A DNA stretch of 64,000 nt from a virus (IMGVR_UViG_3300005830_000045:16480-80479); one strand, 5' to 3'; shown: positions 27,388 through 64,000, counted from the first letter of the stretch. The notes: a model not told the origin generated them from the letters alone. Numbers and translations: made by a program.

Positions 27388-27448
27388 AAAAAAGTTGAAA
27401 TCAAGGCAAAAAACTTCTTGACCTTTGAAGCTGTATGGCATTATCCTG
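27388..27448 (+). promoter_or_regulatory. Phage early-type promoter with A-tract UP-like element
   Basis: AAAAAAGTTG...TTGACC-18-TATCCT; collinear homolog at 55940-56000. Confidence 0.65.
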
Positions 27449-27489
27449 GATTTATTGGCGCAAACAAAATGGCAAGGAGCAGTGACGCT

Positions 27490-28653: not shown

Positions 28654-28764
28654 TTAGATAAATCTTTCCAATAAAACCTAATAAATTCACAAAGTAGCAA
28701 AAAAGTTTGTTTTTTTGGTAGAATTTTTTGGCAAATTCGTTTATGTTTATCTTATCGGCAACAA

Positions 28765-30795
28765 ATGATGAGGCTAAGGATGAAATTAAAGACCAATGCT
28801 CGCAGAAACGCACTTGATGGCCCTTTCACAGCGATAGCAAGGGCCCAAAGTCGTTCCTGGAAAGTCAATATCGTAGCTTCCGGCAGCGTTCTCGCAACAG
28901 ATGGCAATACTATATATTTTCCATGGAATAGCGATGACATCGACACTATTCCTTTCAACGTTTTGAATGGATACCTTGACCATGAGGTGGGGCATATCGC
29001 AGAAGAAAGGGAGCATGCTATAGACGGTCGTGAGACTCCTCTTGAAATCGCAAAGCGTCAAACAAATATCACAAAAAGAATGCTCCTCAATGTATACGAA
29101 GACATTCGTATGGAGATAAAAAGGGGCAAGATTTATCCTGGAGTCGCAGCAAATCTCAAGGCATCTAACGAGCACTCCGTTGGCACCTTTATAAAAAGAT
29201 TTGGTGATGGCGATGGCATGGAAAAGGCTAATTTCTGGCACACTTTAGGGTGCGGGATCATCTTTGCCGCTAGGGAACTTGACACCTTTTGGCTTCCAGA
29301 GCAGTACGCTCCGTTCATGGAAATGCTACAGCCTGAAATCGAGGAAAGTAGGCACGTGGTTTGGGCCCAAGACTCGATGGAGCTTGTCGAGAGAACTTTT
29401 GAAAAAGTCCGTGAACTAGCTAAGGATATTGAAGATTGGATGGAAAAGAAGACAGCTCTGAAGAAAGAAGAGAAAGGCGAGTCAGAGTCAAGCGATACAA
29501 AGGGCAAGAGTGAAAGCGACACGAAGGATGAAGGTGGTGTTGGTGGCCCTAGCGAAGATGGTTCTGACGATGCAACTGCCGAGGATGGTGATGGTGCCTC
29601 TGATAGCGCTGAAGGTGGCGATCAGGAAGTTGGTGAAGGCGAGGAAAGTGCTAGCGGTGTAGAGGGTGGTGTCAGGCGTGGCGATAACGCCGAAGGCGAT
29701 ACCTCGTTTGGTTCACCCTCTACAAGCGCAGAGGACACAAAAGAGGACATGTCTGAAGGCAAAGAAGAAGTGCCATGCGATGGCGCTGAGAAAGCCGCAG
29801 AAATCACAGCTGGGGCTTTTCAAGATGCTGACACCGATGACATCATGTGCGAAGGCAAGAAAGAAATTGAAAAGGCGAGCGAAGATCTTTCTACCTTGCG
29901 CGGTGGATACAACCCCTGCCCCTCTGCCCTTGAGGCTGATCAGTGGATCGTTCCGAAGAAGGGTGAAGAAGCAATTTACAATCAGATCAAGAAGCAGGTC
30001 CAGCAGCAGATTTCTGCACTTCGGTCCAAGTTGATCCACATCATTCGCAGTCGGGCAATTTCTCGCGAGCAATACGAGCAAGACAATGGGAAGCTTGACA
30101 CTTCTTCGCTTTACCGCTTGCGCTTGGGCAGTAAGCAGGTATTCAGCAAGACCGTTTCAGGGCAAATGCTTGACACCGCAGTCACGGTGCTCGTGGACCT
30201 TTCTGGCTCGATGGGCGATTCAAATTTTGCCTATTCCAGAGCTTGTTACGCTAGGATGACGGCTGTTGCCCTTGCAGAAACTTTTGAATCAATCAACGTT
30301 CCTTTCGAGATAATAGGGTTTCACAACAGCTACGACATCCCTTTCAAGCCTGATCGCAGTGGAGCGTTCGTGAATAGACTTCCCTTTGAGTATCACGTTT
30401 ACAAGAGCTTTGAAGAGGTCCATCGCTCCGTTCGATGCCGTCTTGTTGGGATAACAGGACGGCAAGAGAACGCTGATGGCGAGGCAATCGTGGGGGTCGC
30501 AAGGAGATTGGTTGTTCGTCCTGAGAGTCGCAAGCTCATGTTCGTTATCAGCGACGGAAAGCCAGTCTGTCCCGGATTGAGTGATGAAGTTGGCTCAAGA
30601 CATTTGATTGATTCAATCAAAAAGGTGCGAGGGGCAGGGATTATCCTTTTTGGTATCGGAGTGCAGCATTTGGATATCGTGCGTTACTATGGCGTAGAGC
30701 ACAGCATTTGCGTGGACAAACTTGACAAGATGGCCGAAAACATTTTCAAGGTCGTGCGTTCCGTACTTATCGCAGGCCTCAAAAAGGTGGCGTGA
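28765..30795 (+). CDS. CobT-like VWA-domain protein
   Basis: DHEVGH, NVYEDIRME, acidic linker, MIDAS DLSGSM, ADGEAI, ISDGKP. Confidence 0.9.
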   Translation: MMRLRMKLKTNARRNALDGPFTAIARAQSRSWKVNIVASGSVLATDGNTIYFPWNSDDIDTIPFNVLNGYLDHEVGHIAEEREHAIDGRETPLEIAKRQTNITKRMLLNVYEDIRMEIKRGKIYPGVAANLKASNEHSVGTFIKRFGDGDGMEKANFWHTLGCGIIFAARELDTFWLPEQYAPFMEMLQPEIEESRHVVWAQDSMELVERTFEKVRELAKDIEDWMEKKTALKKEEKGESESSDTKGKSESDTKDEGGVGGPSEDGSDDATAEDGDGASDSAEGGDQEVGEGEESASGVEGGVRRGDNAEGDTSFGSPSTSAEDTKEDMSEGKEEVPCDGAEKAAEITAGAFQDADTDDIMCEGKKEIEKASEDLSTLRGGYNPCPSALEADQWIVPKKGEEAIYNQIKKQVQQQISALRSKLIHIIRSRAISREQYEQDNGKLDTSSLYRLRLGSKQVFSKTVSGQMLDTAVTVLVDLSGSMGDSNFAYSRACYARMTAVALAETFESINVPFEIIGFHNSYDIPFKPDRSGAFVNRLPFEYHVYKSFEEVHRSVRCRLVGITGRQENADGEAIVGVARRLVVRPESRKLMFVISDGKPVCPGLSDEVGSRHLIDSIKKVRGAGIILFGIGVQHLDIVRYYGVEHSICVDKLDKMAENIFKVVRSVLIAGLKKVA

Positions 30796-32663
30796 TGGTC
30801 GGCAAACTTTCATCTGTTGATCCTCTTGTCCGTGAAATGTATGAAGAAATAGACGCAAAATTTCTTCCATACATCAAATCTAGGGTGTCATCTCTTTCTG
30901 GTGTTGAATTCGATGACGCCGTACAAGAAGCAAGAGTAGCTTTGTTGACCGCGTTGCACGATTATGACTTCAATCGAGCAGGTGGTGATTATCTTCCATT
31001 CATGAAGATTGTCCTTCTGAATACTTGTCGCGGTCTGTGGCTGAAAGAACGTAGGCGCTCAAAAACGCCTTGGGTCGCAAAACGTGATGGCGAGGATTGG
31101 GTTGAAGGCCCATCGAGACCACTTAGCATCCAGCAGTCGAATGATTGCGATGGTCAACGTTTGCCTACTTATGATGCCTTGCCTGATGAAAACGCGATTG
31201 GCGGAGACCACATGATTTGCCATGAGCATTCTTCTATGCGGGTTGAGGATTTCAAAGAGGTGCTTGAGCAGAATTTGAGCGAGTTTGAGCTGGAGGTGTA
31301 TCGCTGTCGTGTGGATGCTCCCAAGGCTTTGATTGAGCAAGTAAAGGCGGATGATGGTGACGTCAACAACATAGGTGTTCTTGATATTGCTAAATTTCTT
31401 GGCGTTGGAAAGAACAAAGTAGATTGGGCGCTGTATAAGATAAAGTCTGCATTTACAGAAGTTGCTGAGAGAATACGCTTCAGCGATGTTTTTGGGGACT
31501 TGGTAAATAGCTCACAATGGCCCGTGGTCCACGTCAGCAAAGGATTTGAACGCAATAAAGAGTTTGTTCGGAGTATTATCAAGGACCGAAATTTAAGTGG
31601 TCTCGTCCTTGACGAGATTTCCGAGGAGTGTGAAAGCGGTGCGCGCACTATCATTTCCTATAAATGGGGCGTTGTCGTCTATATCGAGAGGGCAGAAACA
31701 TGTTGGACGGCAGTCTTGGAAGGTTCATTCAATCCTCGCAGCGGTGATTTGTTTGGTTCTTGCGGAGCAAGGAAGTTGCTACCGATTGAGGGCTATGGGC
31801 AGTTGGCAAAAGATTTGGCAGATGCAAGGAGAAAAGGGATGGCTTCTGTGAACGACGACAGTCAATATGATAGTTTGAAGGTTTTGCCGCATTGTATAAG
31901 CGAGTACGAGAAAGGAGATTTGGTTTGCGACGGGGATGAAAATGCAGAGTTTGATCCCTGTTGCGTCCACAGAGACAATTGTGTTGCTCTCCAATTGCGT
32001 ATGAAGCAAAAGGGGATGAAAAAGGAGCAGTACGTTGTCGAGAAAACAGACTCAGCTGGCACACCATATTGTGCGCCGAAAAGCTTGATGAGTTTCGGCA
32101 AGATTGTTTCCGGCACGATTCGTAATTACGGTGTGCGCGACGGCAAGGCAACTCGCACCCCCAAGGCTAGGCCCAATAAAAACTCAAAGGCAGTTTCTCG
32201 ACACAAGGAGTTGGTAGAAAAGGCCACTTCTGTTGTCGTGGCACGGTCAGAGGGTGCGACTATTATGGATCCTTGGTATGAAAGAGCTTTGGAAATTTTG
32301 TGCGAGAAAACCGGTAGAACGTTTTGTGCAGGCAACGATCCAAGCATAGGACAGTTTTATGCGAAAGACAGGCGTGCCAAAAGCGGATATGTTGGCGTGT
32401 ATTGCAAGACGGAAAAGGGCAGGCATGTGGCGTTGTTTCTTCTCATGTACAAGCCTCGAACAACGACTATGGATTTCAAATGGCCTGTGTCTGTCGATGG
32501 ATTCAAAGGCGTGGGAGAATCAACGATCAAATTGCTGTCTCCGGTCAAGCATAGTGATGGTGCTTTCGTTTCTATTTCAAAAGGTCTTGACGGGGCAGGA
32601 GTATCTCTTGCGGCTGAATCCCTTTCTCGCATGATTTCAAATGGCACAATAGTGCTTCCTTGA
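30792..32663 (+). CDS. Sigma70-family sigma factor with long C-terminal extension
   Basis: Region 2 DDAVQEARVALLTALHDYDFNR; region 4 LSEFELEV...IAKFLGVGKNKVDWALYKIK; about 400 extra residues. Confidence 0.7.
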   Translation: MMVGKLSSVDPLVREMYEEIDAKFLPYIKSRVSSLSGVEFDDAVQEARVALLTALHDYDFNRAGGDYLPFMKIVLLNTCRGLWLKERRRSKTPWVAKRDGEDWVEGPSRPLSIQQSNDCDGQRLPTYDALPDENAIGGDHMICHEHSSMRVEDFKEVLEQNLSEFELEVYRCRVDAPKALIEQVKADDGDVNNIGVLDIAKFLGVGKNKVDWALYKIKSAFTEVAERIRFSDVFGDLVNSSQWPVVHVSKGFERNKEFVRSIIKDRNLSGLVLDEISEECESGARTIISYKWGVVVYIERAETCWTAVLEGSFNPRSGDLFGSCGARKLLPIEGYGQLAKDLADARRKGMASVNDDSQYDSLKVLPHCISEYEKGDLVCDGDENAEFDPCCVHRDNCVALQLRMKQKGMKKEQYVVEKTDSAGTPYCAPKSLMSFGKIVSGTIRNYGVRDGKATRTPKARPNKNSKAVSRHKELVEKATSVVVARSEGATIMDPWYERALEILCEKTGRTFCAGNDPSIGQFYAKDRRAKSGYVGVYCKTEKGRHVALFLLMYKPRTTTMDFKWPVSVDGFKGVGESTIKLLSPVKHSDGAFVSISKGLDGAGVSLAAESLSRMISNGTIVLP

Positions 32664-32676
32664 TCATATAAATCTT

Positions 32677-33030
32677 TTGGAGGTTTTTTCGGTGCACGGT
32701 GACAGAGACTCATATCACGTGGCGGCACCGGGAAGAGATAGAGAGGGGTGTCTCGTCCATGCAATACAGGAGTACAGAAGAGTGAAGTTCGGTGACGATG
32801 TAATCTTGCGCCGGGGTGGCCACCCTGACAAGCGCCCTGGTCAGTTCAGGGATGTGAGGGCCCGCTACATTGGCGCAAGGGGTCACGGGATCTACTGTGA
32901 GTTGCTGCAAGACGATCCAGACGCTGTTGTCCAACCTAAGACAAAGGGGGGCAAAGGATGGTGGTCTCGCAGCATCATGAGGAGAGGTGATTCTGATCTT
33001 GATGGGCCGCCAGAGAAGAGTGATGAGTAA
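32677..33030 (+). CDS. Hypothetical protein
   Basis: Fills the gap and overlaps the next gene. Confidence 0.5.
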   Translation: MEVFSVHGDRDSYHVAAPGRDREGCLVHAIQEYRRVKFGDDVILRRGGHPDKRPGQFRDVRARYIGARGHGIYCELLQDDPDAVVQPKTKGGKGWWSRSIMRRGDSDLDGPPEKSDE

Positions 33031-34111
33031 ACCGAGACTCGAATGTGCTGACTGCGGACATCACATTTGGGATCGTAACATCAAAGAGTACCTGGAAGCC
33101 GTGAAGAGGAAGCGGGATGAAGAATTTATGGAAAGAGTAGTGATAATTGGCGGAGGTGTGTCTGGTCTCCTTGCGTCGTATGTTGTGAAACGCTATGGAA
33201 GAAGGGTGAAAGTCATAGAGGAAGCAAAGCCAGGTGGCGACTTTCTTTTGGGAGGTTTGAAGTATATACACAGAACGGTCAGAATGGAAGGTTTATTCAA
33301 TGAACTTTCACTTCCATGGAGCCATTATAGGGTCAATGGCGGAATAATGCTGAAGGGGAAAGTTGAACCATATCCGAAATGTCTTCAGTTTATGAGTAAA
33401 GAAGAAGCAATGAGGATACAAGAAGATCATTACAGAAAAACGAGAAAGTCAGAGCCTGGAAAGTTTGGATCAAAGGCCATGAATGATCCGGCAGCGAAAG
33501 TTTCTAGGCGGGCAATTCGTTGTGACTTTGAAGAAATGATTAAAGAATTGGCGAAAAGAGCAGACATAGTCAAAGCTCGTGTTTCTTTTATTGAGTCAAA
33601 AAGAAATAGGGTGAAAACATTTGATGGTGAGTTTATCTATTATGACCGTTTGATCGTAACTATTCCTCTTTGGATTGTTCATCATATTGCTGACTTTTAT
33701 GTTCCGCAAGGGATGGCGATGTCTCTGAACATTTTGGATGTTATTCCAAATAGAGATAGATATGCTCGATGGGATTACATTTACACCCCTTACACTCCGT
33801 CAAGCGCGGTTCATCGTTTGAGCCCAAGTGATCATGGATATAGCATCGAGATCAATGGTGATTGGGCCCAACAAGAAAGAGCTACGTGTAACGATTTGGC
33901 CTTTCTTTTCCCTGACGGGTTTGTCGTTCGTGGTGCTAAGATTGGCACAAAGGGGCATTTGCTTGAGCTCGTGGTAAAGCCTGATTGGCCTGAAAATGTT
34001 ACGCCTTTGGGCCGTTTCGCGCAATGGGATCCACGAGCAACAACTGATGTCACTTTGGACAATATTCATAAGATGGCAAAGGGCTGGGGATGGAAAAAGA
34101 TTCCTTATTGA
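33023..34111 (+). CDS. FAD/NAD(P)-binding oxidoreductase (UDP-galactopyranose mutase/HemY-like fold)
   Basis: VVIIGGGVSGL, IEE...GG, YDRLIVTIP, LGRFAQW. Confidence 0.8.
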   Translation: MSKPRLECADCGHHIWDRNIKEYLEAVKRKRDEEFMERVVIIGGGVSGLLASYVVKRYGRRVKVIEEAKPGGDFLLGGLKYIHRTVRMEGLFNELSLPWSHYRVNGGIMLKGKVEPYPKCLQFMSKEEAMRIQEDHYRKTRKSEPGKFGSKAMNDPAAKVSRRAIRCDFEEMIKELAKRADIVKARVSFIESKRNRVKTFDGEFIYYDRLIVTIPLWIVHHIADFYVPQGMAMSLNILDVIPNRDRYARWDYIYTPYTPSSAVHRLSPSDHGYSIEINGDWAQQERATCNDLAFLFPDGFVVRGAKIGTKGHLLELVVKPDWPENVTPLGRFAQWDPRATTDVTLDNIHKMAKGWGWKKIPY

Positions 34112-35016
34112 GAATGTGGGAGATTCAAAAGCAACAACAAGCTGATCTTGGTCTTGATCCTCGTTACATGAACGGCGTGAATAAACGTGTTGCCGCTGGT
34201 GAGTTGATACAGGGGCTGTACGAGGAGTTGTCAGAGCTTCAACGGTATGCCTCGACATATAAGAGGCACATTCTGTCGGTTGAAGGCGTCAACAAAGGGA
34301 ATGTCACGGAAGAAATCGTTGACGTGTTAAAACTTCTCATTTCGGTGGCCCAGCTCCATGGCATTTCTCCGGTTGATCTTGTGAGCGCTTTTGAGAGAAA
34401 GACACGAGTGATAGCAGCTAAGGCAGAGGGGCAACGGGTTGAGTTGTGTGTAAACACGAAAGTCCTCTGCGTGGATATGGATGATGTCATCGCTGATCTT
34501 TCCCCTTGGGTGAAGGAGCAACAGGAACTAAGAGGTGATGCCCCGATGAATGCCAAGACTATGCAGTTGGTGGAAGCGTGGAAAGGTGATTGGTATCGTT
34601 TAGGACGTTTTTTGGAATTGAGGCCGATTGAAGGCGCATCTACAGCGCTTGGCGTTGTGAAAAGTTGGGGGTGGAAAGTTATCATTATCACGGCAAGACC
34701 GCAATGGCAATACAAGCGTATTTACGCAGACACTCTTGAGTGGCTTCGGGCGCACGAAGTTCCGCATGATTTGATACTTTTCAATAAGGACAAAGTTGAA
34801 GCTATATATGATCACATATCTCCTGCTTGGCCGGTTGCTTTTGTTGAAGATCAGGAAAGAAACGCTGTTCAACTCAGCGCGGCTGGAGTAAAGGTGTTAT
34901 TATTCGATACGGAACGCAATCAAGATTTCGTGTTGCCAAACGGCGTGCAAAGGGTTGCGAACTGGACAGAAGTTCTTTTAGCTTTGGAAAAAAGAAAGAA
35001 AGGGGGGCGCCGATGA
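34090..35016 (+). CDS. All-alpha NTP pyrophosphatase (dimeric dUTPase/dCTPase/MazG-like) fused to NT5C-like HAD nucleotidase
   Basis: EELSEL...EEIVDVLK; then VDMDDVIADL, IITAR, KDK, FVEDQ. Confidence 0.8.
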   Translation: MEKDSLLRMWEIQKQQQADLGLDPRYMNGVNKRVAAGELIQGLYEELSELQRYASTYKRHILSVEGVNKGNVTEEIVDVLKLLISVAQLHGISPVDLVSAFERKTRVIAAKAEGQRVELCVNTKVLCVDMDDVIADLSPWVKEQQELRGDAPMNAKTMQLVEAWKGDWYRLGRFLELRPIEGASTALGVVKSWGWKVIIITARPQWQYKRIYADTLEWLRAHEVPHDLILFNKDKVEAIYDHISPAWPVAFVEDQERNAVQLSAAGVKVLLFDTERNQDFVLPNGVQRVANWTEVLLALEKRKKGGRR

Positions 35017-35969
35017 ATGAAAAGCCCAAAGTCACCTTGCTTACTTGGACCATGAATCCTTTGGAAACGGTTTACTCTGTTTGGCAAGCCTCGAAAAGCG
35101 AGGATGAGCTGGTTACGCCTTTCAATGTGAAAACATCAGTCTCGCAGGAAGAAGTTGAAAGACTTTTCAGGGCTGTAATTGCCCAGCGTATTCCGATTGG
35201 GGAGCATGTTGATTTCGTTTTCATGCTTGAAAACGTCAGTGTGAGTTGGCGCGAACAAGCTGTGCGACACAGGATTGGAACGCTTCCAAGCCCAGAGCGT
35301 GTCGGCGTGGACATTGTCATGGATCAAATTCCAGATTTGCCGGACAGTTCATTTTGGTCGCAGTCGATGAGAATACAAAATATGAGCAACTTCGCCAGAA
35401 AAGGCGCTTACAGGTTGCCTGAGACAGTTATAGAGGCAGGGCCTGAAATGGTTTCTCTTTATAAAGAAACTATGAGGTTGATCGAGAGGACATATGCGGT
35501 TTTGGTTGAAGAAGGTGTTCCTATGGAGGATGCCCGTGAACTTATTCCTCTTGGCGCCCAACACAGAATTAGTTGGCGGCTCAATATAGGTTCCCTGCAA
35601 CATATCGTTGGGAAGCGAGGGTGTTGGATTCTCCAGCTTGGAATTTGGGGGCCTGTGATTACGGGGATGGTCAACGAATTGGCGACAAAGGTCCATCCGG
35701 TTTTCAGAGAATTGGTTGCGCCTCCTTGTTTGAAAGGCGATGAGTTTATGGGGTGTATTTACCATGAGGAGTGTCGCAGGCGTTATACTGGTGATGATGC
35801 GCTTCCGCCTTGCCCGCTTCATCTTACCTATCATGAATTGCCTGCCAAGGGGTTGGAATACGTTGAAGCACAATTCTTATATCCTCGTATGGAAGAAATG
35901 GAGGAACGAGCGGAGCAGTATCGCGTTTTTTGGGGCAGAGATCCGTATACAGGAGAAAGGTTGTGTTAG
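35013..35969 (+). CDS. Divergent ThyX-family flavoenzyme
   Basis: EHVDFVF, EQAVRHR, SFWSQSMR, GVPMEDARELIP, Cys-rich C-terminus; insertion in the signature motif. Confidence 0.8.
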   Translation: MNEKPKVTLLTWTMNPLETVYSVWQASKSEDELVTPFNVKTSVSQEEVERLFRAVIAQRIPIGEHVDFVFMLENVSVSWREQAVRHRIGTLPSPERVGVDIVMDQIPDLPDSSFWSQSMRIQNMSNFARKGAYRLPETVIEAGPEMVSLYKETMRLIERTYAVLVEEGVPMEDARELIPLGAQHRISWRLNIGSLQHIVGKRGCWILQLGIWGPVITGMVNELATKVHPVFRELVAPPCLKGDEFMGCIYHEECRRRYTGDDALPPCPLHLTYHELPAKGLEYVEAQFLYPRMEEMEERAEQYRVFWGRDPYTGERLC

Positions 35970-36176
35970 ATGGGACGAAAGATTCATTGGTCTGGCGGGG
36001 TGATGTTGTCTATGGTTAGGATGCTTCGTGGGTATCCTTGTTGCTGTTCTGGAGACAAGGCGCTCAAAATCAGGTCTTTTGGGAACCAAACAGAAAAACG
36101 TGAAGACGTAACATGCAAGGATTGCTTAGGCATTCTAAAAAGGCAGGATAAGTACCATGAAGATCACAACTGTTGA
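35970..36176 (+). CDS. Small Cys-containing hypothetical protein
   Basis: H...CC...VTCKDC, possible Zn site; coupled to both neighbours. Confidence 0.55.
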   Translation: MGRKIHWSGGVMLSMVRMLRGYPCCCSGDKALKIRSFGNQTEKREDVTCKDCLGILKRQDKYHEDHNC

Positions 36177-36909
36177 TTTGGGAGGAATATGCGTGGCGAA
36201 AGTTGTTGATAGTCGCACAGGAGAATTTGATCGTGCTCGTATTAGAGATAATGCTCCGCATTCGCATTATGCTCTTGATCGTGAGGATATTCACATTGAG
36301 CTTGCTGCCTTTGAAAAGGTTTGCAGGAGAATAGGAGAGCGTAGTGATTGGACCGTATTCGAGCCATTTGGTGGTTCTGGTTGGCATTCTTCTTTGATCA
36401 GGCGTTTGGTTGGTCCAAGAAAGCAATTTGTGGTTGATATTTCAAAGGATTGCATTCGTTCTGTTTGTGCTGGTTTGAAAGGCAATCGTGGTGTGATTGC
36501 TATTTGCGGAGATGGCTGTGATTACCTAAGGCATTCCAAGTGGAAATTCAATTGGATTCACGCTGATTTCAATATTTGGACGGCTGAAGACATGAGTCTT
36601 GACCCTGAGTTGCGTGGCACTTGGAATGCTCTCTTTGAAATGGCAACGGATTGTATTACTTTCACGGACACTACGCATTATCACCTGGCTAATAGTCCTG
36701 TTGTGTATTGGTATGATGAAGTTGATCGTTGGATCAAGGTCACGAAGGGTTGGAAAGTTGATTTCGTGTTCGATTGGGGGCCAGCGGCCATGCATGTGCT
36801 TTCTCCTTTGAAGGAGAAAGAAAAAGAGGTTTTCGCAAAACCGCTCATAGTACAGGTCAGGGAACCTATGAAGGTAACAGTTTTGAGAGAGGAGAGCAGT
36901 GATGAGTAA
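36157..36909 (+). CDS. Class I SAM-dependent methyltransferase-fold protein
   Basis: VFEPFGGSG (motif I), VVDIS (II), CGDG (III), WIHADFN in place of DPPY. Confidence 0.6.
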   Translation: MKITTVDLGGICVAKVVDSRTGEFDRARIRDNAPHSHYALDREDIHIELAAFEKVCRRIGERSDWTVFEPFGGSGWHSSLIRRLVGPRKQFVVDISKDCIRSVCAGLKGNRGVIAICGDGCDYLRHSKWKFNWIHADFNIWTAEDMSLDPELRGTWNALFEMATDCITFTDTTHYHLANSPVVYWYDEVDRWIKVTKGWKVDFVFDWGPAAMHVLSPLKEKEKEVFAKPLIVQVREPMKVTVLREESSDE

Positions 36910-38260
36910 TCAGAATGAAGACACGACCATTGACACTATGGTATTCAACAAGCGTTTGATGAATAACATTGTCAGACTTCCTTTTGAAGTTGAAACAGCT
37001 CGTGGTTCTGCTATTCGTACTGTTCAGGGGCACGTTTTGTTGGATTTCTGGGGCGATGAAGGCGTATGTAGTCTTGGATACAACACAGAAGAATACAGAA
37101 GGATAGTGGATAATTTTCACAGCAGTGGACAACCGCATCAGTTGCCAGATGTTTATCCCCAGACCTCCAGATTCAACGCAGCAGAGAAGATTTGCCAGAT
37201 GACAGATATGGACCGCATCTTTTTCGCAAATAGCGGTACAGAAGCGAATGAAGCAGCCATCAAAATTGCAAGAAAATTTTGGTGGGATAAGTATAGCAAT
37301 ATATATAGAGAAGGAAGAATAAAGTCAAATAAAGCGTACGCACGGCGGCATATAGTTCTCACAATTGCCGGAAACTTTCATGGCAGAACTGGGCTAAGCA
37401 GCGCGGCAAGCGACCCAAGGGTCAGTCCGTATCACCATTGGGGGTTTGGCCCGAAGCCAAAAGGTTTTGGCGTTATCGACGATAAGACTTTCCTTCAAGT
37501 CGTTACAGACGGCGATGTCCATGAAGATTATCCGATTGAACCTGATTGGTCCAACGTTGCTGCTGTGATTCTTGCTCCGGTTTTGGGAAACAATTTGGTA
37601 AAGACATATTCTAAAAGCTTTTGGGAGGAACTTGGAGCTTTGAGGAAGAAGCACGGATTTCTTATTATCCACGATGACGTTCAAGCCGGAAGCGGAAGAG
37701 CAGGTTGGCCAGCAACGTATCAAGGGATTTCTGTCTTTGATTCGAGGTTTGAAAGCTTGGTCAAACCAGACATATTGTGTCTCGGGAAAGGCATGGCTCT
37801 TGGCTATCCAATGAGCGCGATGCTTGCCTCTGAAGAAGTTGCTTCCGCTTTTACTCCCGGTGTCCACTTCAACACTTTTGGAGGCAGCCCTTTCGTTTGT
37901 TATCTTGCCGAGCAATATTATAGTTGGCTTGAATTGGAACTTCCGAAAGTCAGAGATTTGGGCGAGGCAATTCGTTTGCGTTTCTCTGAAATGGCCTGGA
38001 TCAAGGAGCATGACGGGTCTGGTTTGCTCAACGCTTTCACGCCTAATTTCGGGAAGTATGGATATGATGGTTTTGAGTTTTGTCACAAGGCTCGTGATTT
38101 CGGCATTAGCATTGTGACCCATCGACGATATGGGCCAATTCGATTCACGCCTCCAATGAACGTTGCTCCTGATGAGATTGCTACCGCCTTTATTGCGTTG
38201 GAAAGAACACACAAGTTTTTGACAAAAGAACACAGAAGCTTTAGGTTGGAGGATGAATAG
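36899..38260 (+). CDS. Class III PLP aminotransferase (ArgD/OAT-like)
   Basis: NSGTEANEAAIK, FHGRT, HDDVQAGSGRAG, PDILCLGKG (PLP Lys), HFNTFGGSP, RFTPP. Confidence 0.92.
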   Translation: MMSNQNEDTTIDTMVFNKRLMNNIVRLPFEVETARGSAIRTVQGHVLLDFWGDEGVCSLGYNTEEYRRIVDNFHSSGQPHQLPDVYPQTSRFNAAEKICQMTDMDRIFFANSGTEANEAAIKIARKFWWDKYSNIYREGRIKSNKAYARRHIVLTIAGNFHGRTGLSSAASDPRVSPYHHWGFGPKPKGFGVIDDKTFLQVVTDGDVHEDYPIEPDWSNVAAVILAPVLGNNLVKTYSKSFWEELGALRKKHGFLIIHDDVQAGSGRAGWPATYQGISVFDSRFESLVKPDILCLGKGMALGYPMSAMLASEEVASAFTPGVHFNTFGGSPFVCYLAEQYYSWLELELPKVRDLGEAIRLRFSEMAWIKEHDGSGLLNAFTPNFGKYGYDGFEFCHKARDFGISIVTHRRYGPIRFTPPMNVAPDEIATAFIALERTHKFLTKEHRSFRLEDE

Positions 38261-38840
38261 CGTAGTGATACTGGACGGGTTGAATGCAAGCGGAAAGACA
38301 TTCTGCGCGGAAACGCTTTCTGAATTGCTTCCAGCCCCAATAATACGTCCATTTAGAGAAAACAATGAGCATCTTGGAAGAGAAGATAAAGGCGCTCAAG
38401 AAAACCTACACAAACTTGGCATCCCGGCCAATACGTTTGTCGATGATGCTTATACGTCTGACTTTTTGGTTCAAACAGGAGTAAGCGCTGTTTTGGACCG
38501 TTCTATGGGTTCTGGCATTGCCTATGGCCTTCTGTACGGAAACATTGCGAATATGAAGCACGCCAGAGAATTGTTGTCGCTTTGGCAAGAGAGCATCACG
38601 AGGTATAACGGAAACATTTTGTATGTGTATATGATTGCTCGGAAAGAAGTCAGGAAGAAAAGGTGTAAAGCTGAAGGAAGATGGCACCCTAACGCTTCAC
38701 AGGACAAACTGCTTTATAAAGTCTTTGATCTTGTTTTTAGGTGTATTGAATTTGAAAAGATATTGGTTGATTCTTCCGATATAGCCCAGGAATGCATTGG
38801 TCCGGTTGTTGCGAAGAAGATAATCAAAAGACTGAGGTGA
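38253..38840 (+). CDS. dNMP (thymidylate-like) kinase
   Basis: LDGLNASGKT P-loop; VLDRSMGSGIAYG. Confidence 0.8.
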   Translation: MNSVVILDGLNASGKTFCAETLSELLPAPIIRPFRENNEHLGREDKGAQENLHKLGIPANTFVDDAYTSDFLVQTGVSAVLDRSMGSGIAYGLLYGNIANMKHARELLSLWQESITRYNGNILYVYMIARKEVRKKRCKAEGRWHPNASQDKLLYKVFDLVFRCIEFEKILVDSSDIAQECIGPVVAKKIIKRLR

Positions 38841-38843
38841 TTC

Positions 38844-39206
38844 ATGTTTAAGTCGTTAGAAGAAATGAGAGAGCAACTTCGCAGAGGGATTGCAACCAGG
38901 TGTTCAAAAGTGGTGGATTCAAGGGAAGATTCAAGCTCTGGAAGCGAGACAATAGCTGGGCAGATGTCTCTGGTTGGTGATCCAGTTGCAGACTTTGAAA
39001 ACGCAGACACGCGCTTGTATCTTGATGAGGAAGAAGAAGAAAAGGAGAAAGGTCCATGGAGCGGTACGCTTCCTGCTGTTGTGAAGCACGTTGAGGAGAA
39101 GTATGGGCCAATAAAGGGCAGACACGTTGATATTATTGTTGTTGATGATATCATTGTCGATAAAGAAGATATCAGAGCGAGGGGGAAGAATAGTGGGAAA
39201 AGCTGA
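38844..39206 (+). CDS. Hypothetical protein
   Basis: GAGGT SD; acidic; ends with KGRHVDIIVVDD. Confidence 0.55.
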   Translation: MFKSLEEMREQLRRGIATRCSKVVDSREDSSSGSETIAGQMSLVGDPVADFENADTRLYLDEEEEEKEKGPWSGTLPAVVKHVEEKYGPIKGRHVDIIVVDDIIVDKEDIRARGKNSGKS

Positions 39207-39555
39207 TGTGGATGAATGGTTTGAAGCAGACCTTGAAATACGTGAAGCGATTGATATTCGCGGTGGAAAGTATCCAGGGATTTCTCTTTCTCCAACCTTT
39301 GAGTTGAAAGGGCCATTGCCTCTGCGAGCCAAAAGTAGATTTCGCCATACTAAGTATTTGATCTTGGAAGATAAATCAGATGCACTTTTGAGTTTTGGCA
39401 AGCATTCCGGTAAATTTGTTTCTGCGGTTGCTTCGATTGAGCCTGATTATCTTAGATGGATTTTGAAAGAGGAGTTTTCTGCCGATTTGAAAGAAGTTGT
39501 CGATAATGTTTTGAATGGAACCAAGCCTGTTGACATGAAGTTTCGTGGAAAGTAA
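39193..39555 (+). CDS. Small protein with FGKH.G...YL.W motif (DUF3820/ExoX C-terminal-like)
   Basis: LSFGKHSGKFVSAVASIEPDYLRWIL. Confidence 0.65.
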   Translation: MGKADVDEWFEADLEIREAIDIRGGKYPGISLSPTFELKGPLPLRAKSRFRHTKYLILEDKSDALLSFGKHSGKFVSAVASIEPDYLRWILKEEFSADLKEVVDNVLNGTKPVDMKFRGK

Positions 39556-39590
39556 ATCCTCCCTAGTCTTTCGCAAGAAAGTAGGCGTTC

Positions 39591-42500
39591 ATGCATGATT
39601 CAGAAAAGAAAGAAGATTTTGTTCATCTCCACACTCATAGTGATTTGAGTCAGCTTGACGGCTGCGGAAAGATTTCTGATTACGTGGACGCAGCCCATAA
39701 GCGTGGAAATCCAGCAATCTCGTTCACTGATCATGGAACTATGAGAGGATACATGACGCAGTATGAGGAGTGCAAGAGGGCTGGAATCAAGCCAATCTAC
39801 GGGGTTGAATTCTACGTTTCTCGAAATATGTACCGTAAGGGTATCACCGCTGAAGAAAAGACGGAACTTTCAAAGGGCAGGACCAAGGCGCAAGCGAAGG
39901 AGGTGATTGCGCAATACGAAATAAATGAAGGGATCAGAAAGCGTTGGCACCTGACGGTGCACGCCGAAACAGAAGCGGGGCTGAAAAACCTTTTCAGACT
40001 GACCTCGAAAGCTTTCATTGAAGGTTTTTACTACAAGCCTCGAATAGATATTGAAACGCTCTGCGAGCACAGCGAAGGTTTGATTGTTTCTTCTGGTTGC
40101 GTTGGAAGTCCAGTCAATAGTAATTGGTTTGAAGGGAATAGGCGTTATGCCGTTGAAGTATCAGATAAGTTGCATGAGGTGTTCCAAGACCGTTATATGA
40201 TTGAAATTCAGCCGCACGATATAGCAGAACAGCTGGAAGCGAATAAGTTGGCTGTGAAACTCAGGAAAAGATATGGCGGGAAATCGCGTCTTGTCGCGAC
40301 GCAAGATGCTCATTATATCAACAAAAGTGATGCCGTTCACCACGATGTTCTTCTTTGCATAGGCACAGGAAGTTATCTTTCAGACCCAAAGCGTATGAAG
40401 TTTGACGGCGATGAATTTCATATGCGAACACGTCGTGAGATGATTCGAGCATTCATGAAGTGGCACAGCGGATTGACCAAGGGCCAAATAAAAGAGGCAT
40501 TGGACACCACGATGCTCTTCCACGAGCGTTGCAACGTCAAACTCAATATTGACTATCACGCAGCCTTGCTTCCTGATCCTGGTATCCCTCCTGAATATGT
40601 CGATGATTTCTCGTATTTGAAAGATTTGTGCATTCAAGGTTGGAGCTGGAGAGAAATACCGGCAAGGGCTTTAGCGTATTCGGTGAAACACGGGGTGCCT
40701 TACGAGGAAGCTTTGTCGCTTTACAGCAAACGTTTGAAGCATGAACTTGGAGCTATAAAGAAGCAAAGATTTGTTCCGTATTTTATTCTAATACACGACT
40801 TGTATCGTTGGGCACGCGGTGAGAATATAATGGTTGGCCCTGGTCGTGGAAGCGTAGCAGGTTGCCTAATTGGGTATCTGATCGGATTGACTTCTGTTGA
40901 CCCTATTGATCATGGGTTGATCTTTGAGCGATTCATCAACCCAAATCGTATCGACATGCCTGATATTGATATGGACTTTGAAGACAGGAGAAGGCAAGAG
41001 GTTTTTGCATACCTCAGGAGGAAGTACGGTGAAGACAAAGTTTGCCAAATTGCCACCGTTGGCAAGCTATCCGGGAAGCAGTGTCTCAAGGATGTTTCTC
41101 GCGTTCTACAGGTTCCATACGCGGAAGTCAACCAGGTGACAAATTCCATCATCGAGCGTTCTAGCGGGGATGAACGGGCATCGCAGACAATTGAAGACTC
41201 TTTCAAGGAGTTTGAAATATGTCGAGATTTTGATAAGAGATACCCGAAAGTTTTGTATCATTCAAAACGTCTTGAAGGCATGGCCAAAAACTTGGGAATA
41301 CACGCTGCAGGAGCTGTTGCCTCTCCGGTGCCGCTGACAGATATCATCCCTCTGGAAGTGAGGAAGCATAATGGGAAAGATGTTATAGTCTCAGCCGTGG
41401 ACATGTACGGCGTTGCTGCGAGTGGTTTGGTAAAGCTCGATGTTTTAGGTTTGCGCACACTCACCGTTTTGAAAGAAGCGACAGAAGCGATAGAAGAAAG
41501 GCATGGCAGGAAGATTGACCTTGAATCAGCAGAAGTTGATTTGAGCGACCCGAAAGTTTTGAAGGGGTTCACAGATCACGATTATGGAGGCGTTTTTCAG
41601 TATGATACGCCTTCAGCGGACAAGGTCTGTTCAGGCGTCAAGTTCTCTTCTTTCGAGGACATTGCCGCCATGACAGCTCTCAACAGGCCAGGCACATCCA
41701 GAAGCGGTTTGGCATCCCGATATGTGGACAGAAAAAAGAATCCAGAGAAAGCAAAGAAACACGATTTCCATCCAGCTGTTTCCGAGATAACGAAGGACAC
41801 GTTGGGCATTATCGTGTACCAAGAGCACGTCATAAAGATATTCACAGACATCGCTGGATTTGCTCCGGCAACGGCTGACTCTTTGCGTAAAACAATCGCT
41901 AAAAAGATTGGCGATGAAACCATGGGGAAGGAACGTGCCAACTTTGTTGCTGGAGCTGTTGAGAAAACGGGAATGGACGAGAAAACCGCACATAAGATTA
42001 TGGACGCGATAACTTTTTTCGGGTGCGTTCCTTGGTGGACGCAAATAGCAACGCCATTTGGGCCAAGGGCAATTGATTCTTTGTCTGATGGTGATGAAAT
42101 TTACAGCGTTGAAGAATGCGGGAAAGTTGTCATCAATACCATAAAGACGGTCACAAGCACAGGGCCAAAGGATTTGTATCGAATAACTGCGAGCGGTTTT
42201 ATGGTTGATTCTTCCAACGACCACTATTGGGAGTGCATGGAAGGAGGTTACAAAAAGGCTAGTGAGCTTTGTGAAGGTGAATTCATATCGTATGTTATGG
42301 GGCATGGATTCAAATCATCCGAAAAAGAAAAGCTTTTGCTTGAAGAAGGATTGCGCAAGGGAAGTGTTTTGCCGAGGATTGTGCAGCCTTCATTATCAGA
42401 GACAGTACAGAAAGAAGCGGACAGAAAAGGGCAACCCTGTGAGCAGTGCGCACAACAAGTGGCCCGGAGCACCGGGCAAGGGTTGGAAAAGGGGCAAAAA

Positions 42501-44357
42501 CAAGAATACGCATCCAGGGATAGCAGCGCACGCGAAAGCTATGATGGGAGAGTTGAATCCGGCTTGGACAGACTGGAGTTATTCAGAATTCAAAATAATG
42601 AAAGATACGCTGCTGGAAAAGATAAAGGTCTGCCAAAGGTGCGGTTGCCCTCCGGACGAGGGAAGCGATGCCCCGAATGTGAGAGTTTTGCACGTCCACC
42701 ACAAGAACAGAAACAAAAAGGACAATTCGGCGGACAACTTGGAAGTTCTCTGTCAATCTTGTCACAGCAAGGAGCATTGGGAGGAAAAGCACTCTGGTGG
42801 ATTCGGGTGGATGAAATTCGTCAAATAGCAGATAGATCAACGCACAGAAGTGGTTGCCCTGCTAGGGATATTGAGTGTTATGACATAGAGGTTGATTCTA
42901 GTCCATGTAATTATGTGGCTAACGGAATAATATGCCATAATTCCTATGGATTCAATAAGAGCCATGCAACAGCTTATGGGATGATAGCGTTTTGGTGCAT
43001 GTTTCTCAAGACCTATTATCCTCTTGAGTTTTATTGGTCGCTGTTGAAAAACGAGCCAGACCGTGTCCGGATACAACAGTTGGCGAAACACGCAAAGAAG
43101 AAAGGCATATCATTCTTGTCGCCTTCTGTGAACACTTCCAAGGCGCACTTTGCCATAGATGATAGTCGTGGAGCAATTCGAGGTTCCCTTGTAGACATAA
43201 AAGGAGTTGGGACAGCGGCAGCGAAAGCTATTATGGCGACGCAGCCTTATACTGACTTTTTTGACTTCCTTGATCGAGTAGACAAGAGAAAGGTTCACAA
43301 AGGCGTCGTGGCTTCTCTTGTCCGGGCAGGAGCACTGGATGATTTGGTCCCCAATCCTCGGTGGCTTATTGAGAACATGGAAGCATTCTGGAAGCAAGTT
43401 GCGAAGAAGTCAGAGGAAGCGCAGAAAGAAGCAAGGCGGATGATTGAGGCGTCAAAGGATGAAAAGTCTTGGGACGCAGAGGAAAAGCAGCTTATCGCTT
43501 CCAAGGTGAACCCTCTTGCTTTCGGGAAGCACCCGATGGATACTTACAAGGATTTCTTGAATAAAAACGTGAAGATAAAGATTGCAGATATGTCAGCTGG
43601 TGATTTCTATGAGAGGAATGATGGAAGAATAGTCCTTGTCGGTGGAACTATAGTGGAAGTGAAACTCAATCAAATAGGTGACTTTCACACTGGAAGGCTG
43701 CCGACTGAAGAGGAACGTGAGCGTATGTTTTGGGGGAAACGTTATGCTAACGTAAACATAGAAGATATTGGCGGAGTTCAGAATAGAATCAAGTTTGATT
43801 GGGACGTTTACCCTGGTATGCGTCCTGTTATTGAATTAGGTTTGGGTGCTCCGGTGCTCGTGATGGCCTCTGTGAATGCGAAATTTGAGAACATGAGGGC
43901 TTTTTTCGCAGTCGATTTGGAGGGGATGAGAAAGAAGTTGATTTCGGGGAAACCATTGGGCATGTGGGAAAGCATTGTGACCGGAAACCATCCTGTGAAG
44001 CACATAAAGGCTAAGAGCGATGCCGTCAAAAGAGCCATGTGGACCAATAAATATTACAGGATGTCTCCGAAAGGAGGTCCATTTTGGGGTGTTGTGACGA
44101 ACATTCGTTTGAAATACGACAAGCGCGGTCAACTTATGGCTTTCTTTGGTCTTATTGGCGGCAACGGTTTCATGATTGATGTAATTTGCTTTGCTTCTCA
44201 ATGGGAATTTGTCAAAACTGTAATCAGCGTTGAACAGGTGTTGAAGATAGAAATAGGCAGATCAAGAGAAAGAGGCAGAGGAGTGTCTCACATTTTCAAC
44301 GGTGGCTTGGTAAAAAGTTTCAAGTCTGTTTGTGAAAAGGAGAAAGAAGATGAGTAA
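39591..44357 (+). CDS. dnaE: DNA polymerase III alpha subunit containing an intein
   Basis: HLHTHS, TDHG, DAH (PHP); GPGRGS; PDIDMDF; HAAG; KLDVLGL; YGFNKSH; OB folds. Confidence 0.97.
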   Translation: MHDSEKKEDFVHLHTHSDLSQLDGCGKISDYVDAAHKRGNPAISFTDHGTMRGYMTQYEECKRAGIKPIYGVEFYVSRNMYRKGITAEEKTELSKGRTKAQAKEVIAQYEINEGIRKRWHLTVHAETEAGLKNLFRLTSKAFIEGFYYKPRIDIETLCEHSEGLIVSSGCVGSPVNSNWFEGNRRYAVEVSDKLHEVFQDRYMIEIQPHDIAEQLEANKLAVKLRKRYGGKSRLVATQDAHYINKSDAVHHDVLLCIGTGSYLSDPKRMKFDGDEFHMRTRREMIRAFMKWHSGLTKGQIKEALDTTMLFHERCNVKLNIDYHAALLPDPGIPPEYVDDFSYLKDLCIQGWSWREIPARALAYSVKHGVPYEEALSLYSKRLKHELGAIKKQRFVPYFILIHDLYRWARGENIMVGPGRGSVAGCLIGYLIGLTSVDPIDHGLIFERFINPNRIDMPDIDMDFEDRRRQEVFAYLRRKYGEDKVCQIATVGKLSGKQCLKDVSRVLQVPYAEVNQVTNSIIERSSGDERASQTIEDSFKEFEICRDFDKRYPKVLYHSKRLEGMAKNLGIHAAGAVASPVPLTDIIPLEVRKHNGKDVIVSAVDMYGVAASGLVKLDVLGLRTLTVLKEATEAIEERHGRKIDLESAEVDLSDPKVLKGFTDHDYGGVFQYDTPSADKVCSGVKFSSFEDIAAMTALNRPGTSRSGLASRYVDRKKNPEKAKKHDFHPAVSEITKDTLGIIVYQEHVIKIFTDIAGFAPATADSLRKTIAKKIGDETMGKERANFVAGAVEKTGMDEKTAHKIMDAITFFGCVPWWTQIATPFGPRAIDSLSDGDEIYSVEECGKVVINTIKTVTSTGPKDLYRITASGFMVDSSNDHYWECMEGGYKKASELCEGEFISYVMGHGFKSSEKEKLLLEEGLRKGSVLPRIVQPSLSETVQKEADRKGQPCEQCAQQVARSTGQGLEKGQKQEYASRDSSARESYDGRVESGLDRLELFRIQNNERYAAGKDKGLPKVRLPSGRGKRCPECESFARPPQEQKQKGQFGGQLGSSLSILSQQGALGGKALWWIRVDEIRQIADRSTHRSGCPARDIECYDIEVDSSPCNYVANGIICHNSYGFNKSHATAYGMIAFWCMFLKTYYPLEFYWSLLKNEPDRVRIQQLAKHAKKKGISFLSPSVNTSKAHFAIDDSRGAIRGSLVDIKGVGTAAAKAIMATQPYTDFFDFLDRVDKRKVHKGVVASLVRAGALDDLVPNPRWLIENMEAFWKQVAKKSEEAQKEARRMIEASKDEKSWDAEEKQLIASKVNPLAFGKHPMDTYKDFLNKNVKIKIADMSAGDFYERNDGRIVLVGGTIVEVKLNQIGDFHTGRLPTEEERERMFWGKRYANVNIEDIGGVQNRIKFDWDVYPGMRPVIELGLGAPVLVMASVNAKFENMRAFFAVDLEGMRKKLISGKPLGMWESIVTGNHPVKHIKAKSDAVKRAMWTNKYYRMSPKGGPFWGVVTNIRLKYDKRGQLMAFFGLIGGNGFMIDVICFASQWEFVKTVISVEQVLKIEIGRSRERGRGVSHIFNGGLVKSFKSVCEKEKEDE
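42024..42941 (+). mobile_element. Intein in DnaE (306 aa)
   Basis: FFG|CVPWWTQI (block A), SSNDHYW (block B), CYDIEV...NYVANGIICHN|S (blocks F/G); removal restores FFGSYGFNKSH. Confidence 0.95.
42292..42828 (+). CDS. HNH homing endonuclease nested in the +1 frame of the intein
   Basis: C....C......GLC..HY Zn motif; GELNPAW; CQRCG...LHVHHKNRNKKDNSADNLEVLCQSCHSKEH; ORF open from 42205. Confidence 0.9.
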   Translation: MLWGMDSNHPKKKSFCLKKDCAREVFCRGLCSLHYQRQYRKKRTEKGNPVSSAHNKWPGAPGKGWKRGKNKNTHPGIAAHAKAMMGELNPAWTDWSYSEFKIMKDTLLEKIKVCQRCGCPPDEGSDAPNVRVLHVHHKNRNKKDNSADNLEVLCQSCHSKEHWEEKHSGGFGWMKFVK

Positions 44358-44841: not shown

Positions 44842-44846
44842 TCTTC

Positions 44847-45425: not shown

Positions 45426-45464
45426 CAAGGCGCGCCAACGTAGCGCCAACAAAAGGAGGTTTCT

Positions 45465-63908: not shown

Positions 63909-64000
63909 CACACTCAAAATTTGCCAATTTATAAAACTAACACACTCAAAATTTGCCAATTTATAAAACTAACACACTCAAAATTTGCCAATTTATAAAA
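63909..64000 (+). repeat. 32-bp AT-rich tandem repeat, about 3 copies, cut by the window end
   Basis: CACACTCAAAATTTGCCAATTTATAAAACTAA at 63909, 63941, 63973. Confidence 0.95.

Follow-up and report, generated by a model that had tools for sequence, protein, structure and literature searches.

Modified bases let bacteriophages evade restriction and CRISPR nucleases, and they are a source of enzymes for DNA chemistry. To our knowledge, every described pathway to a C5-modified pyrimidine begins with an enzyme of the ThyA type. In the Bacillus phages SPO1, SP8 and phi-e, which contain 5-hydroxymethyl-deoxyuridine (5-hydroxymethyl-dU), and in T4, where gp42, gp1 and gp56 provide for 5-hydroxymethyl-deoxycytidine (5-hydroxymethyl-dC), three roles recur: a thymidylate-synthase-type enzyme acting on a deoxynucleoside monophosphate (dNMP), a phage dNMP kinase, and a pyrophosphatase or nucleotidase that removes the canonical competitor. 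Candidates for the same three roles are found in a module of seven genes shortly upstream of dnaE in a 64,000-nucleotide stretch of viral DNA (IMGVR_UViG_3300005830_000045:16480-80479; the whole stretch is hereafter called the window), and, as in the SPO1/T4 type, a dCMP deaminase would feed dUMP. The module differs from that type in that its one-carbon enzyme has the flavin-dependent ThyX fold and not that of ThyA, its pyrophosphatase and nucleotidase are fused, and an omega-transaminase and a flavoprotein of the amine-oxidase fold have been added. Moreover, the modified base is established in the SPO1/T4 type and putative here.

In the post-replicative hypermodification of phages M6, ViI, PaMx11 and PhiW-14, which involves a 5-hydroxymethyl-dU DNA kinase (5-HMUDK) and an aGPT-Pplase/amino-acid:DNA transferase, with radical SAM and acetyltransferase enzymes among those that tailor the base (PMC5889632, PMC8989533), varied sets of tailoring enzymes surround a one-carbon handle at C5 of uracil, as they may do here, and the types of tailoring are alike (dependent on pyridoxal phosphate, PLP, or on flavin adenine dinucleotide, FAD, or transferring methyl, sulfo or acyl groups). 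5-Aminomethyl-dU is an intermediate in PaMx11, which makes an amine-bearing end product plausible for the module as well. However, the kinase of the module matches thymidylate kinases, and in place of a decarboxylase the module has a transaminase of class III as its PLP enzyme. In structure searches its flavoprotein ranked nearest to UDP-galactopyranose mutases (UGM), protoporphyrinogen oxidases (PPOX) and amine oxidases. Neither 5-HMUDK nor aGPT-Pplase occurs among the Pfam and PHROG matches of the module and its neighbours, a screen that left the structural genes unscanned and included no search aimed at these families.

Two further systems resemble the module in part. In the Pbunavirus phages PB1, F8 and 14-1, gp61 is likewise a long-form enzyme with a cysteine-bearing extension, as in the family of the module, and is encoded near a DnaE-type polymerase, but descriptions of the PB1-type modification speak of a sugar or sugar alcohol and of no amine. 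The tRNA xm5U34 pathway (MnmE-MnmG, MnmC) is similar on paper, with a one-carbon transfer to uracil C5 that depends on flavin and methylene-folate, capture by an amine, the action of an FAD-dependent oxidoreductase, and N-methylation dependent on S-adenosylmethionine (SAM). Homology to the module is, however, limited to a Rossmann motif (MnmC match 1e-3, ~50 residues), no transaminase takes part in that pathway, and the substrate of the module would be a free deoxynucleotide.

The first-pass annotation of the window did not recognise the gene set from described pathways, and our full-text search of the literature likewise found no published description of it or of a matching pathway. The reading that we prefer, tentatively and short of calling it probable, is that the module is a phage pathway to a non-canonical nucleotide of the thymidine type, substituted at C5, and that it also holds down the pools of the canonical pyrimidine nucleotides that compete with it. 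For its enzymes, family, fold, intactness of the catalytic motifs and conservation of the linkage are established; the chemical steps, all of which we infer, would lead to a non-standard, probably amine-bearing, thymidine-like DNA building block.

Results

Organization of the module

The window is the final 64 kb of an 80,479-bp record from an uncultured estuary virus that is estimated to be ~78% complete. ORF coordinates and domain calls bear out the earlier description of seven overlapping or abutting genes shortly upstream of dnaE: the module comprises seven open reading frames (ORFs) on the plus strand at 33023-38840, in which neighbours abut or overlap by 4-22 nt. The enzyme classes named at first pass are likewise present and look catalytically intact, as judged from Pfam, profiles and invariant motifs. 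In order, the genes are:

32987/33023-34111, plus strand: small FAD flavoprotein, ~327-362 aa, with the amine-oxidase / PPOX / UGM fold (sequence and AlphaFold2 (AF2) model)
34090-35016, plus strand: MazG-like all-alpha NTP pyrophosphohydrolase (~1-118) fused to an NT5C-type HAD 5'(3')-deoxyribonucleotidase (~125-295) (Pfam, profile against PDB)
35013-35969, plus strand: divergent long-form ThyX, 318 aa (Pfam Thy1, AF2 model)
35970-36176, plus strand: Cys-rich ORF, 68 aa (ORF call)
36157-36909, plus strand: class I SAM-methyltransferase-like protein, 250 aa, a variable accessory gene (ESM Atlas)
36899-38260, plus strand: PLP aminotransferase of class III (omega-type), in a subfamily specific to phages and nearest ArgD/AstC/OAT (Pfam Aminotran_3)
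38253-38840, plus strand: thymidylate-kinase-like P-loop dNMP kinase, 195 aa (PHROG, profile against PDB)

Scans for promoter-like and terminator-like sites across the module region gave no more than chance level, so that it is the tight packing of the genes to which the term operon refers here.

A long-form ThyX-like enzyme

The third gene encodes a ThyX core to which a ~27-residue insertion after the RHR motif and a ~100-residue C-terminal extension with four invariant cysteines are added. This ThyX-like enzyme scores 70.3 bits against Pfam Thy1 (PF02511, cut-off 24.8; 2.3e-19) and 49.6 bits against the equivalog TIGR02170, which is under the cut-off of 87.9. For its AF2 model (predicted confidence, pLDDT, 89; insertion residues 89-108 disordered) the predicted fold matched, above Z 5, ThyX-family chains only, including those of Thermotoga maritima (5chp, Z 14.6, root-mean-square deviation (rmsd) 2.5, 200 aligned), Mycobacterium tuberculosis (2af6, Z 14.3) and PolB (4p5a, Z 13.5). 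The extra ~27 residues break the compact motif RHRxxSxxxxSxR into RHR (85-87) and SQSMR (116-120). In the alignment, T. maritima Q75, R78, H79, R80, S88, R90, R147 and R174 correspond to Q82, R85, H86, R87, S118, R120, R175 and R202, while T. maritima H53 is replaced by R59 and E86 by Q117. We take H53 to be the folate-stacking histidine of the ternary complex, the place of which is occupied by arginine here. Across 41 diverse members the residues R80, R85, H86, W115, Q117, R120, R175, R202, C204, C239, C248 and C267 are invariant; the four cysteines of the extension, kept at identities down to 33%, likely form a metal site.

The first-pass annotation had left either dUMP or dCMP as substrate. 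Because the arginine that reads uracil O4 (R174 in T. maritima) is invariant, dUMP is the likely substrate, and dCMP is rejected as an unlikely one. The family is sizeable, with 223 clusters at 50% identity (E < 1e-30), and a search of one prokaryotic genome each from 185,579 species recovered no relatives, although this search used a single peptide pattern and is weak evidence. Within these searches the long-form, Cys4-bearing ThyX family thus appears to be confined to viruses.

Flavoprotein and MazG-NT5C fusion

The start of the flavoprotein is uncertain (32987 GTG, 33023 ATG or ~33128 ATG); the alignment of its orthologues begins at about residue 48 of the longest frame (near 33128), and the residue numbers given below refer to the 327-aa form that starts at ~33128. 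By sequence the protein yields GxGxxG Rossmann matches only. Its AF2 model (pLDDT 94.4) has, by structure comparison, the predicted two-domain FAD fold of the amine-oxidase/PPOX/UGM superfamily, with T. cruzi UGM as the top match (4dsg, Z 26.5, rmsd 3.4, 323 aligned), followed by protoporphyrinogen oxidases (Z 21-24) and amine oxidases (Z 17-20), and residues 1-325 are covered. The structural neighbours include putrescine and polyamine oxidases (Z 16-19), while flavoproteins of the glycine/sarcosine-oxidase type rank lower (Z ~15-16), and PF01593 Amino_oxidase is assigned to the named clusters that lie nearest to the protein in the ESM Atlas (0.96-0.97). The family is small, with just 143 matches, all of similar size, in 5.8 billion proteins. 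Seven basic residues are invariant among 34 members (H101, K104, R106, R230, H277, R296 and R303) and fit an anionic substrate. The modelled fold by itself would accommodate oxidase as well as mutase chemistry.

In the second gene, the HAD half (residues 125-295) matches Pfam NT5C (1.3e-10). Profile comparison of the N-terminal domain with the PDB gave MazG-related 2q73 (E 1.6e-4), YpjD (0.009) and, weaker still, dCTP pyrophosphatase 1 and dimeric dUTPase. Seven orthologues share the HAD motif DxD (D129, D131), K235 and E253-D254, as well as the MazG acidic residues E45, E46 and D78. Families and intact motifs would suit an enzyme that removes one or another canonical nucleotide.

Aminotransferase, kinase and accessory genes

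The aminotransferase matches Pfam Aminotran_3 (PF00202) with 175 bits (2.3e-51), and its top PDB match is an acetylornithine aminotransferase (2eh6, 4.8e-37). It reaches none of the housekeeping equivalogs examined (ArgD, AstC, OAT, GabT, PatA, EctB); argD comes nearest to its cut-off, and even there the 179 bits against TIGR00707 are far below the required 410. Invariant among 18 orthologues are the PLP lysine K297, D259, R163 of the FHGR motif and T326. The best 120 homologues are all located on metagenome contigs, many of 90-115 kb. Like the ThyX-like enzyme and the flavoprotein, the aminotransferase appears to belong to a phage-restricted family.

The kinase matches PHROG 761 'thymidylate kinase' (8e-8) and, in profile comparison with the PDB, SPbeta YorR (4.8e-8) and, over its full length, A. 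aeolicus thymidylate kinase (7.6e-6); a P-loop is present, and a DRS motif stands at the position of the DRY/F of the family.

The 250-aa protein has no Pfam or NCBIfam match. In the ESM Atlas it falls among methyltransferase clusters (feature score 0.92, structure TM 0.54-0.62), so that its assignment to the class I SAM methyltransferases is to be taken as a lead only; homologues occupy the same slot in L011-L016 and L060 only (loci of the IMG/VR set described below). The 68-aa Cys-rich ORF has no Pfam or PHROG match, is not conserved in relatives and may be no real gene.

Distribution and linkage

Conserved co-occurrence in phage genomes, the check proposed at first pass, was assessed by hidden Markov model scoring of 67 IMG/VR loci around ThyX-like genes, and the linkage extends well beyond the present genome. 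A five-gene core is kept by 24 of the 25 related DnaE-phage loci (flavoprotein 24, MazG-NT5C fusion 24, aminotransferase 24, kinase 25). In L002, L004, L006, L018 and L019 the genes for aminotransferase, ThyX-like enzyme and kinase are shuffled relative to each other, and the set still stays together. Fusion, ThyX-like enzyme, aminotransferase and kinase are also kept in other neighbourhoods (L031/L032 and L060), and L008 has ThyX-like enzyme, aminotransferase and kinase together, with the fusion gene 25 kb off.

Further genes are found within the module, namely a Methyltransf_11 protein in L017 and a sulfotransferase in L031. The latter (L031:10488-11261) lies just after the kinase gene. In L001 a short-chain dehydrogenase/reductase (SDR) that resembles UDP-sulfoquinovose synthase (SQD1-like; L001:8774-10189) is located between the ThyX-like and aminotransferase genes; against NCBIfam it scores 487 bits (4e-146), where the cut-off is 575. 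Together with the sulfotransferase this makes two sulfur-related enzymes at the same module. By analogy, such varying tailoring genes resemble those of known hypermodification clusters (PMC8989533).

In the 34 PolA-phage loci the ThyX-like gene is accompanied by a YfbR-like HD 5'-deoxynucleotidase (30/34), a nucleoside-deoxyribosyltransferase-like protein (29/34) and DUF6378 (25/34), and in 13 of them a radical SAM/SPASM gene lies directly upstream of it. This gene set (e.g. L023:5288-7800) may represent another module, distinct from the present one, for tailoring or salvage. DUF6378 was considered as a stand-in for the MazG domain and rejected (hhalign probability 0.3). The kinase goes with the aminotransferase at 25/25 DnaE loci, against a kinase in 2/34 PolA loci, as expected if only a tailored dNMP needs a kinase of its own.

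Genome context

Three features outside the module bear on its function:

39591-44357, plus strand: DnaE-type replicative polymerase, intein-bearing (Pfam DNA_pol3_alpha 3.9e-75; PHP, finger and HHH_6 domains; weak Intein_splicing match)
53736-54227, plus strand: dCMP deaminase, for dUMP supply (Pfam dCMP_cyt_deam_1 2.9e-20)
55262-55921, plus strand: canonical ThyX (Thy1 2.3e-34; TIGR02170 109 bits, above the cut-off of 87.9)

The dnaE gene starts 0.75 kb downstream of the module, with two small genes between it and the kinase gene. It encodes 1588 aa, and the weak Intein_splicing match falls in an insertion (~41.9-43.0 kb) between the finger and HHH domains; the dnaE genes of relatives encode 1255-1990 aa, and intein content therefore varies. 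The canonical thyX and the dCMP deaminase gene are located 15-17 kb downstream of the module, and the deaminase was found in 3 of 5 relatives tested. No ThyA (PF00303) was found in this genome or in five complete relatives, by a search that detected it in control genomes.

Upstream of the module, a CobS-like AAA+ protein (AAA_5, CbbQ_C) and a CobT-like VWA protein form a pair at 27418-30795 that is conserved across the DnaE-phage lineage. They are followed by a 623-aa ORF (30792-32663) that has only faint sigma-70-like matches, at its N-terminus, and in place of which almost every relative has two separate genes (~360 and ~300 aa). At the end of the record (~63916-64000) the final 20 bases recur 64 bases upstream as a short direct repeat; no terminal redundancy was found between the end and the start of the record.

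A nucleotide search against 50,697 phage records gave no match for the stretch, and protein searches gave remote matches only (<=30-35% identity). Sequence near-identical to 28000-46000 is present in estuary metatranscriptome libraries of four studies, where the record is almost whole. In one of four such libraries that contain the stretch, it forms a single 44-kb contig. The even depth of this contig suggests carried-over phage DNA rather than mRNA, and this library may be the source of the record. Illumina contigs such as these carry no signal of modification, and the libraries therefore indicate habitat and are proof of neither transcription nor modification.

PB1-type phages of Pseudomonas

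Sequence comparison points to PB1-type phages of Pseudomonas as the closest cultured carriers of this type of ThyX. PB1 gp61 matches the ThyX-like profile with an hhalign probability of 99 (E 5e-18), its cysteine-bearing extension included, while the canonical ThyX of the present phage gives a weaker match to the same profile (probability 86). It is the only Thy-type enzyme of PB1 and is encoded near the DnaE-type polymerase gp57; it does not have the 27-residue insertion, and RTR replaces RHR. No aminotransferase is annotated in the stretch of the PB1 replication region that was examined. As a counterpart of the MazG-NT5C fusion, gp59 (HAD/kinase) is unsupported (hhalign probability 12), and gp68 (Rossmann) is a weak candidate for that of the flavoprotein (N-terminal 73 columns only, probability 78). 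For this counterpart of the flavoprotein, a middling BFVD match to a PA5 protein was obtained in addition (E 7e-8, TM 0.44-0.50).

In virion DNA of the PB1-type phages F8 and 14-1, about one quarter of the thymidines are hypermodified, with masses of 362 and 390, and the modification is confined to TG sites (bioRxiv 10.1101/2025.03.31.646159, a preprint of 2025). Its authors interpret the two masses as derivatives with a sugar alcohol and a pentose, and note that known modification genes are missing from these phages; the responsible genes are unassigned (bioRxiv 10.1101/2025.03.31.646159). By our arithmetic, 362 and 390 equal 5-hydroxymethyl-dU (258) plus erythritol (122) or pentose (150) minus water. 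Co-occurrence with hypermodified thymidine makes gp61 no more than a candidate maker of the precursor in PB1-type phages.

Discussion

A possible route to an amine-bearing nucleotide

On the reading that the module makes a C5-substituted thymidine-type nucleotide, the long-form ThyX, with FAD and methylene-tetrahydrofolate, would put one carbon on C5 of dUMP, and the product would be functionalised, e.g. 5-hydroxymethyl-dUMP, instead of or besides dTMP. The flavoprotein of the amine-oxidase/UGM fold would then oxidise the C5 one-carbon group to an aldehyde, which the omega-type aminotransferase, using glutamate, would turn into an aminomethyl group. The thymidylate-kinase-like enzyme would phosphorylate the new dNMP, from which host NDP kinase would form the triphosphate for DnaE, and the MazG-NT5C fusion would drain dTTP and dUTP via the monophosphate to the nucleoside. 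Finally, the amine or a hydroxyl could be decorated, here by the methyltransferase-like protein and in relatives by the sulfotransferase, the SQD1-like enzyme or another methyltransferase. We know of no role for a PLP omega-transaminase or an amine-oxidase-fold flavoprotein in canonical dNTP synthesis, which counts in favour of such a route. So do the linkage, which outlasts changes of gene order and context, the variable tailoring genes within the module, and the kinase that goes with the aminotransferase in the DnaE phages. The ThyX-like enzyme itself contributes the loss of the folate-stacking histidine beside retained uracil and phosphate ligands, the disordered loop at its active-site motif, the Cys4 extension and the kinship with PB1 gp61.

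A more specific version, which we consider doubtful, would make the long-form Cys4 ThyX family flavin-dependent dUMP C5-hydroxymethylases or aminomethylases instead of thymidylate synthases and thereby the missing precursor enzyme of PB1-type phages; in the DnaE lineage it would feed oxidation and transamination to 5-aminomethyl-dUMP, N-methylated in the present phage, all at the level of the nucleotide. On this version there would be a second way to amine-bearing DNA, one that depends neither on ThyA nor on the kinase/Pplase route.

Several observations weigh against a dedicated modification pathway. The ThyX-like enzyme keeps every mapped dUMP- and FAD-binding residue, most of them invariant in the 41 members, and with all mapped catalytic and binding residues retained, plain dTMP synthesis is possible; a search for residues that would separate the ThyX-like enzymes of aminotransferase-bearing phages from those of aminotransferase-free phages found none, and no active-site position tells the two groups apart. 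The first-pass annotation had argued that dTMP supply is covered by the separate canonical thyX. That gene is indeed present at 55262, but it could free the ThyX-like enzyme for new chemistry in this phage only. The same Pfam Thy1 search that yields two copies in this genome yields one in relatives, and in nine complete relatives the ThyX-like enzyme is the sole match, so that it could be the thymidylate synthase of the lineage and the canonical ThyX, missing from all nine, seems to have been acquired recently by this phage. The presence of canonical ThyX and dCMP deaminase is, moreover, at odds with a drainage of dTTP.

The partner enzymes raise doubts as well. The arginine of the FHGR motif, which in ornithine aminotransferase binds the carboxylate of the amino acid, is kept, and an amino acid or polyamine is therefore as likely a substrate of the aminotransferase as a nucleotide aldehyde. 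Enzymes of the amine-oxidase fold usually oxidise C-N or C-C bonds rather than alcohols, and 5'-deoxynucleotidases are also encoded by phages with ordinary DNA, such as T5. As for the linkage, it is mostly found inside one phage lineage and could be explained by shared ancestry, to which the rearranged contexts add limited independence only; L008, a complete genome, does without the flavoprotein, and in all 34 PolA-phage loci the ThyX-like gene occurs without flavoprotein, fusion or aminotransferase. The first-pass interpretation as a whole thus holds for enzyme classes and linkage, while its thyX argument was overstated and it did not reckon with a ThyX-like gene that is common in PolA phages without the partner enzymes.

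Alternative explanations

The alternative that survives best, although we consider it somewhat unlikely, is an ordinary pyrimidine supply. The ThyX-like enzyme would then be the thymidylate synthase of the lineage, the kinase a dTMP kinase and the MazG domain a dUTP/dCTP pyrophosphatase feeding dUMP, while NT5C trims pools and the aminotransferase, flavoprotein and methyltransferase-like genes, unrelated to that supply, would be auxiliary genes of amino-acid or polyamine metabolism that lodged there by chance. The conserved dUMP and FAD ligands and the status as sole Thy homologue in the nine complete relatives agree with this, as do the 34 PolA loci, in which the gene stands beside routine nucleotide genes (YfbR-like nucleotidase, deoxyribosyltransferase-like) without an aminotransferase, the ArgD/OAT-type motifs retained in the aminotransferase of the module, and the structural proximity of putrescine and polyamine oxidases to the flavoprotein. 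Against this, the aminotransferase and flavoprotein stay in the module despite shuffled gene order and in separate contexts and belong to phage-restricted subfamilies well under any housekeeping equivalog cut-off. Furthermore, a fused NTP pyrophosphatase and dNMP nucleotidase would waste newly made dTMP, the present genome would have two dTMP synthases, and tailoring enzymes have been inserted within the module.

Alternatively, the pathway could be split, an option that we regard as unlikely. In this case the ThyX-like enzyme, kinase and fusion would supply a triphosphate of the 5-hydroxymethyl-dU type before replication, and flavoprotein, aminotransferase and methyltransferase-like protein would tailor polymerised DNA, as in M6, ViI and PaMx11. 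PLP- and FAD-dependent enzymes do act on DNA in described pathways of thymidine hypermodification (PMC8989533), the confinement of the PB1-type modification to TG sites points to tailoring on DNA, and the PolA group combines the ThyX-like enzyme with other tailoring candidates (radical SAM/SPASM in 13/34) but, as a group, not with the kinase. On the other hand, no 5-HMUDK, aGPT-Pplase or amino-acid:DNA transferase was seen among the Pfam and PHROG matches of the neighbours, neither flavoprotein nor aminotransferase has an evident DNA-binding domain, and the invariant Arg, Lys and His residues of the flavoprotein, together with the UDP-sugar-binding enzyme to which its structure is close, suit DNA no better than a free nucleotide. 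The earlier designation of the operon as pre-replicative accordingly suits the kinase and the pyrophosphatase-nucleotidase, by family, while DNA is an equally possible substrate of flavoprotein and transaminase.

A product other than a DNA base, i.e. a nucleotide-derived small molecule or the depletion or alteration of host nucleotide and amino-acid pools for takeover or counter-defence, is very unlikely: the ThyX homologue PolB, a fold match of the ThyX-like enzyme (Z 13.5), does serve nucleoside-antibiotic synthesis, radical SAM, phosphatase and aminotransferase enzymes also take part in the polyoxin pathway, and phage MazG-like enzymes are linked to host takeover, but at 25 loci the module lies among the replication genes, immediately ahead of DnaE, its thymidylate-kinase-like kinase suggests that a dNTP is the end product, and export, resistance and ligase genes are all absent.

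Conclusions

If the module is indeed a pathway to a C5-substituted thymidine-type nucleotide, a flavin-dependent ThyX start followed by the introduction of an amine through transamination would be new enzymology. The kinship with PB1-type therapeutic phages, in which no genes have been assigned to the hypermodification of thymidine, makes the question testable now. Viromes of soil, sediment and estuaries are rich in the families of the module, and a sizeable, unrecognised share of environmental phage DNA would, if this reading is true, be non-canonical.

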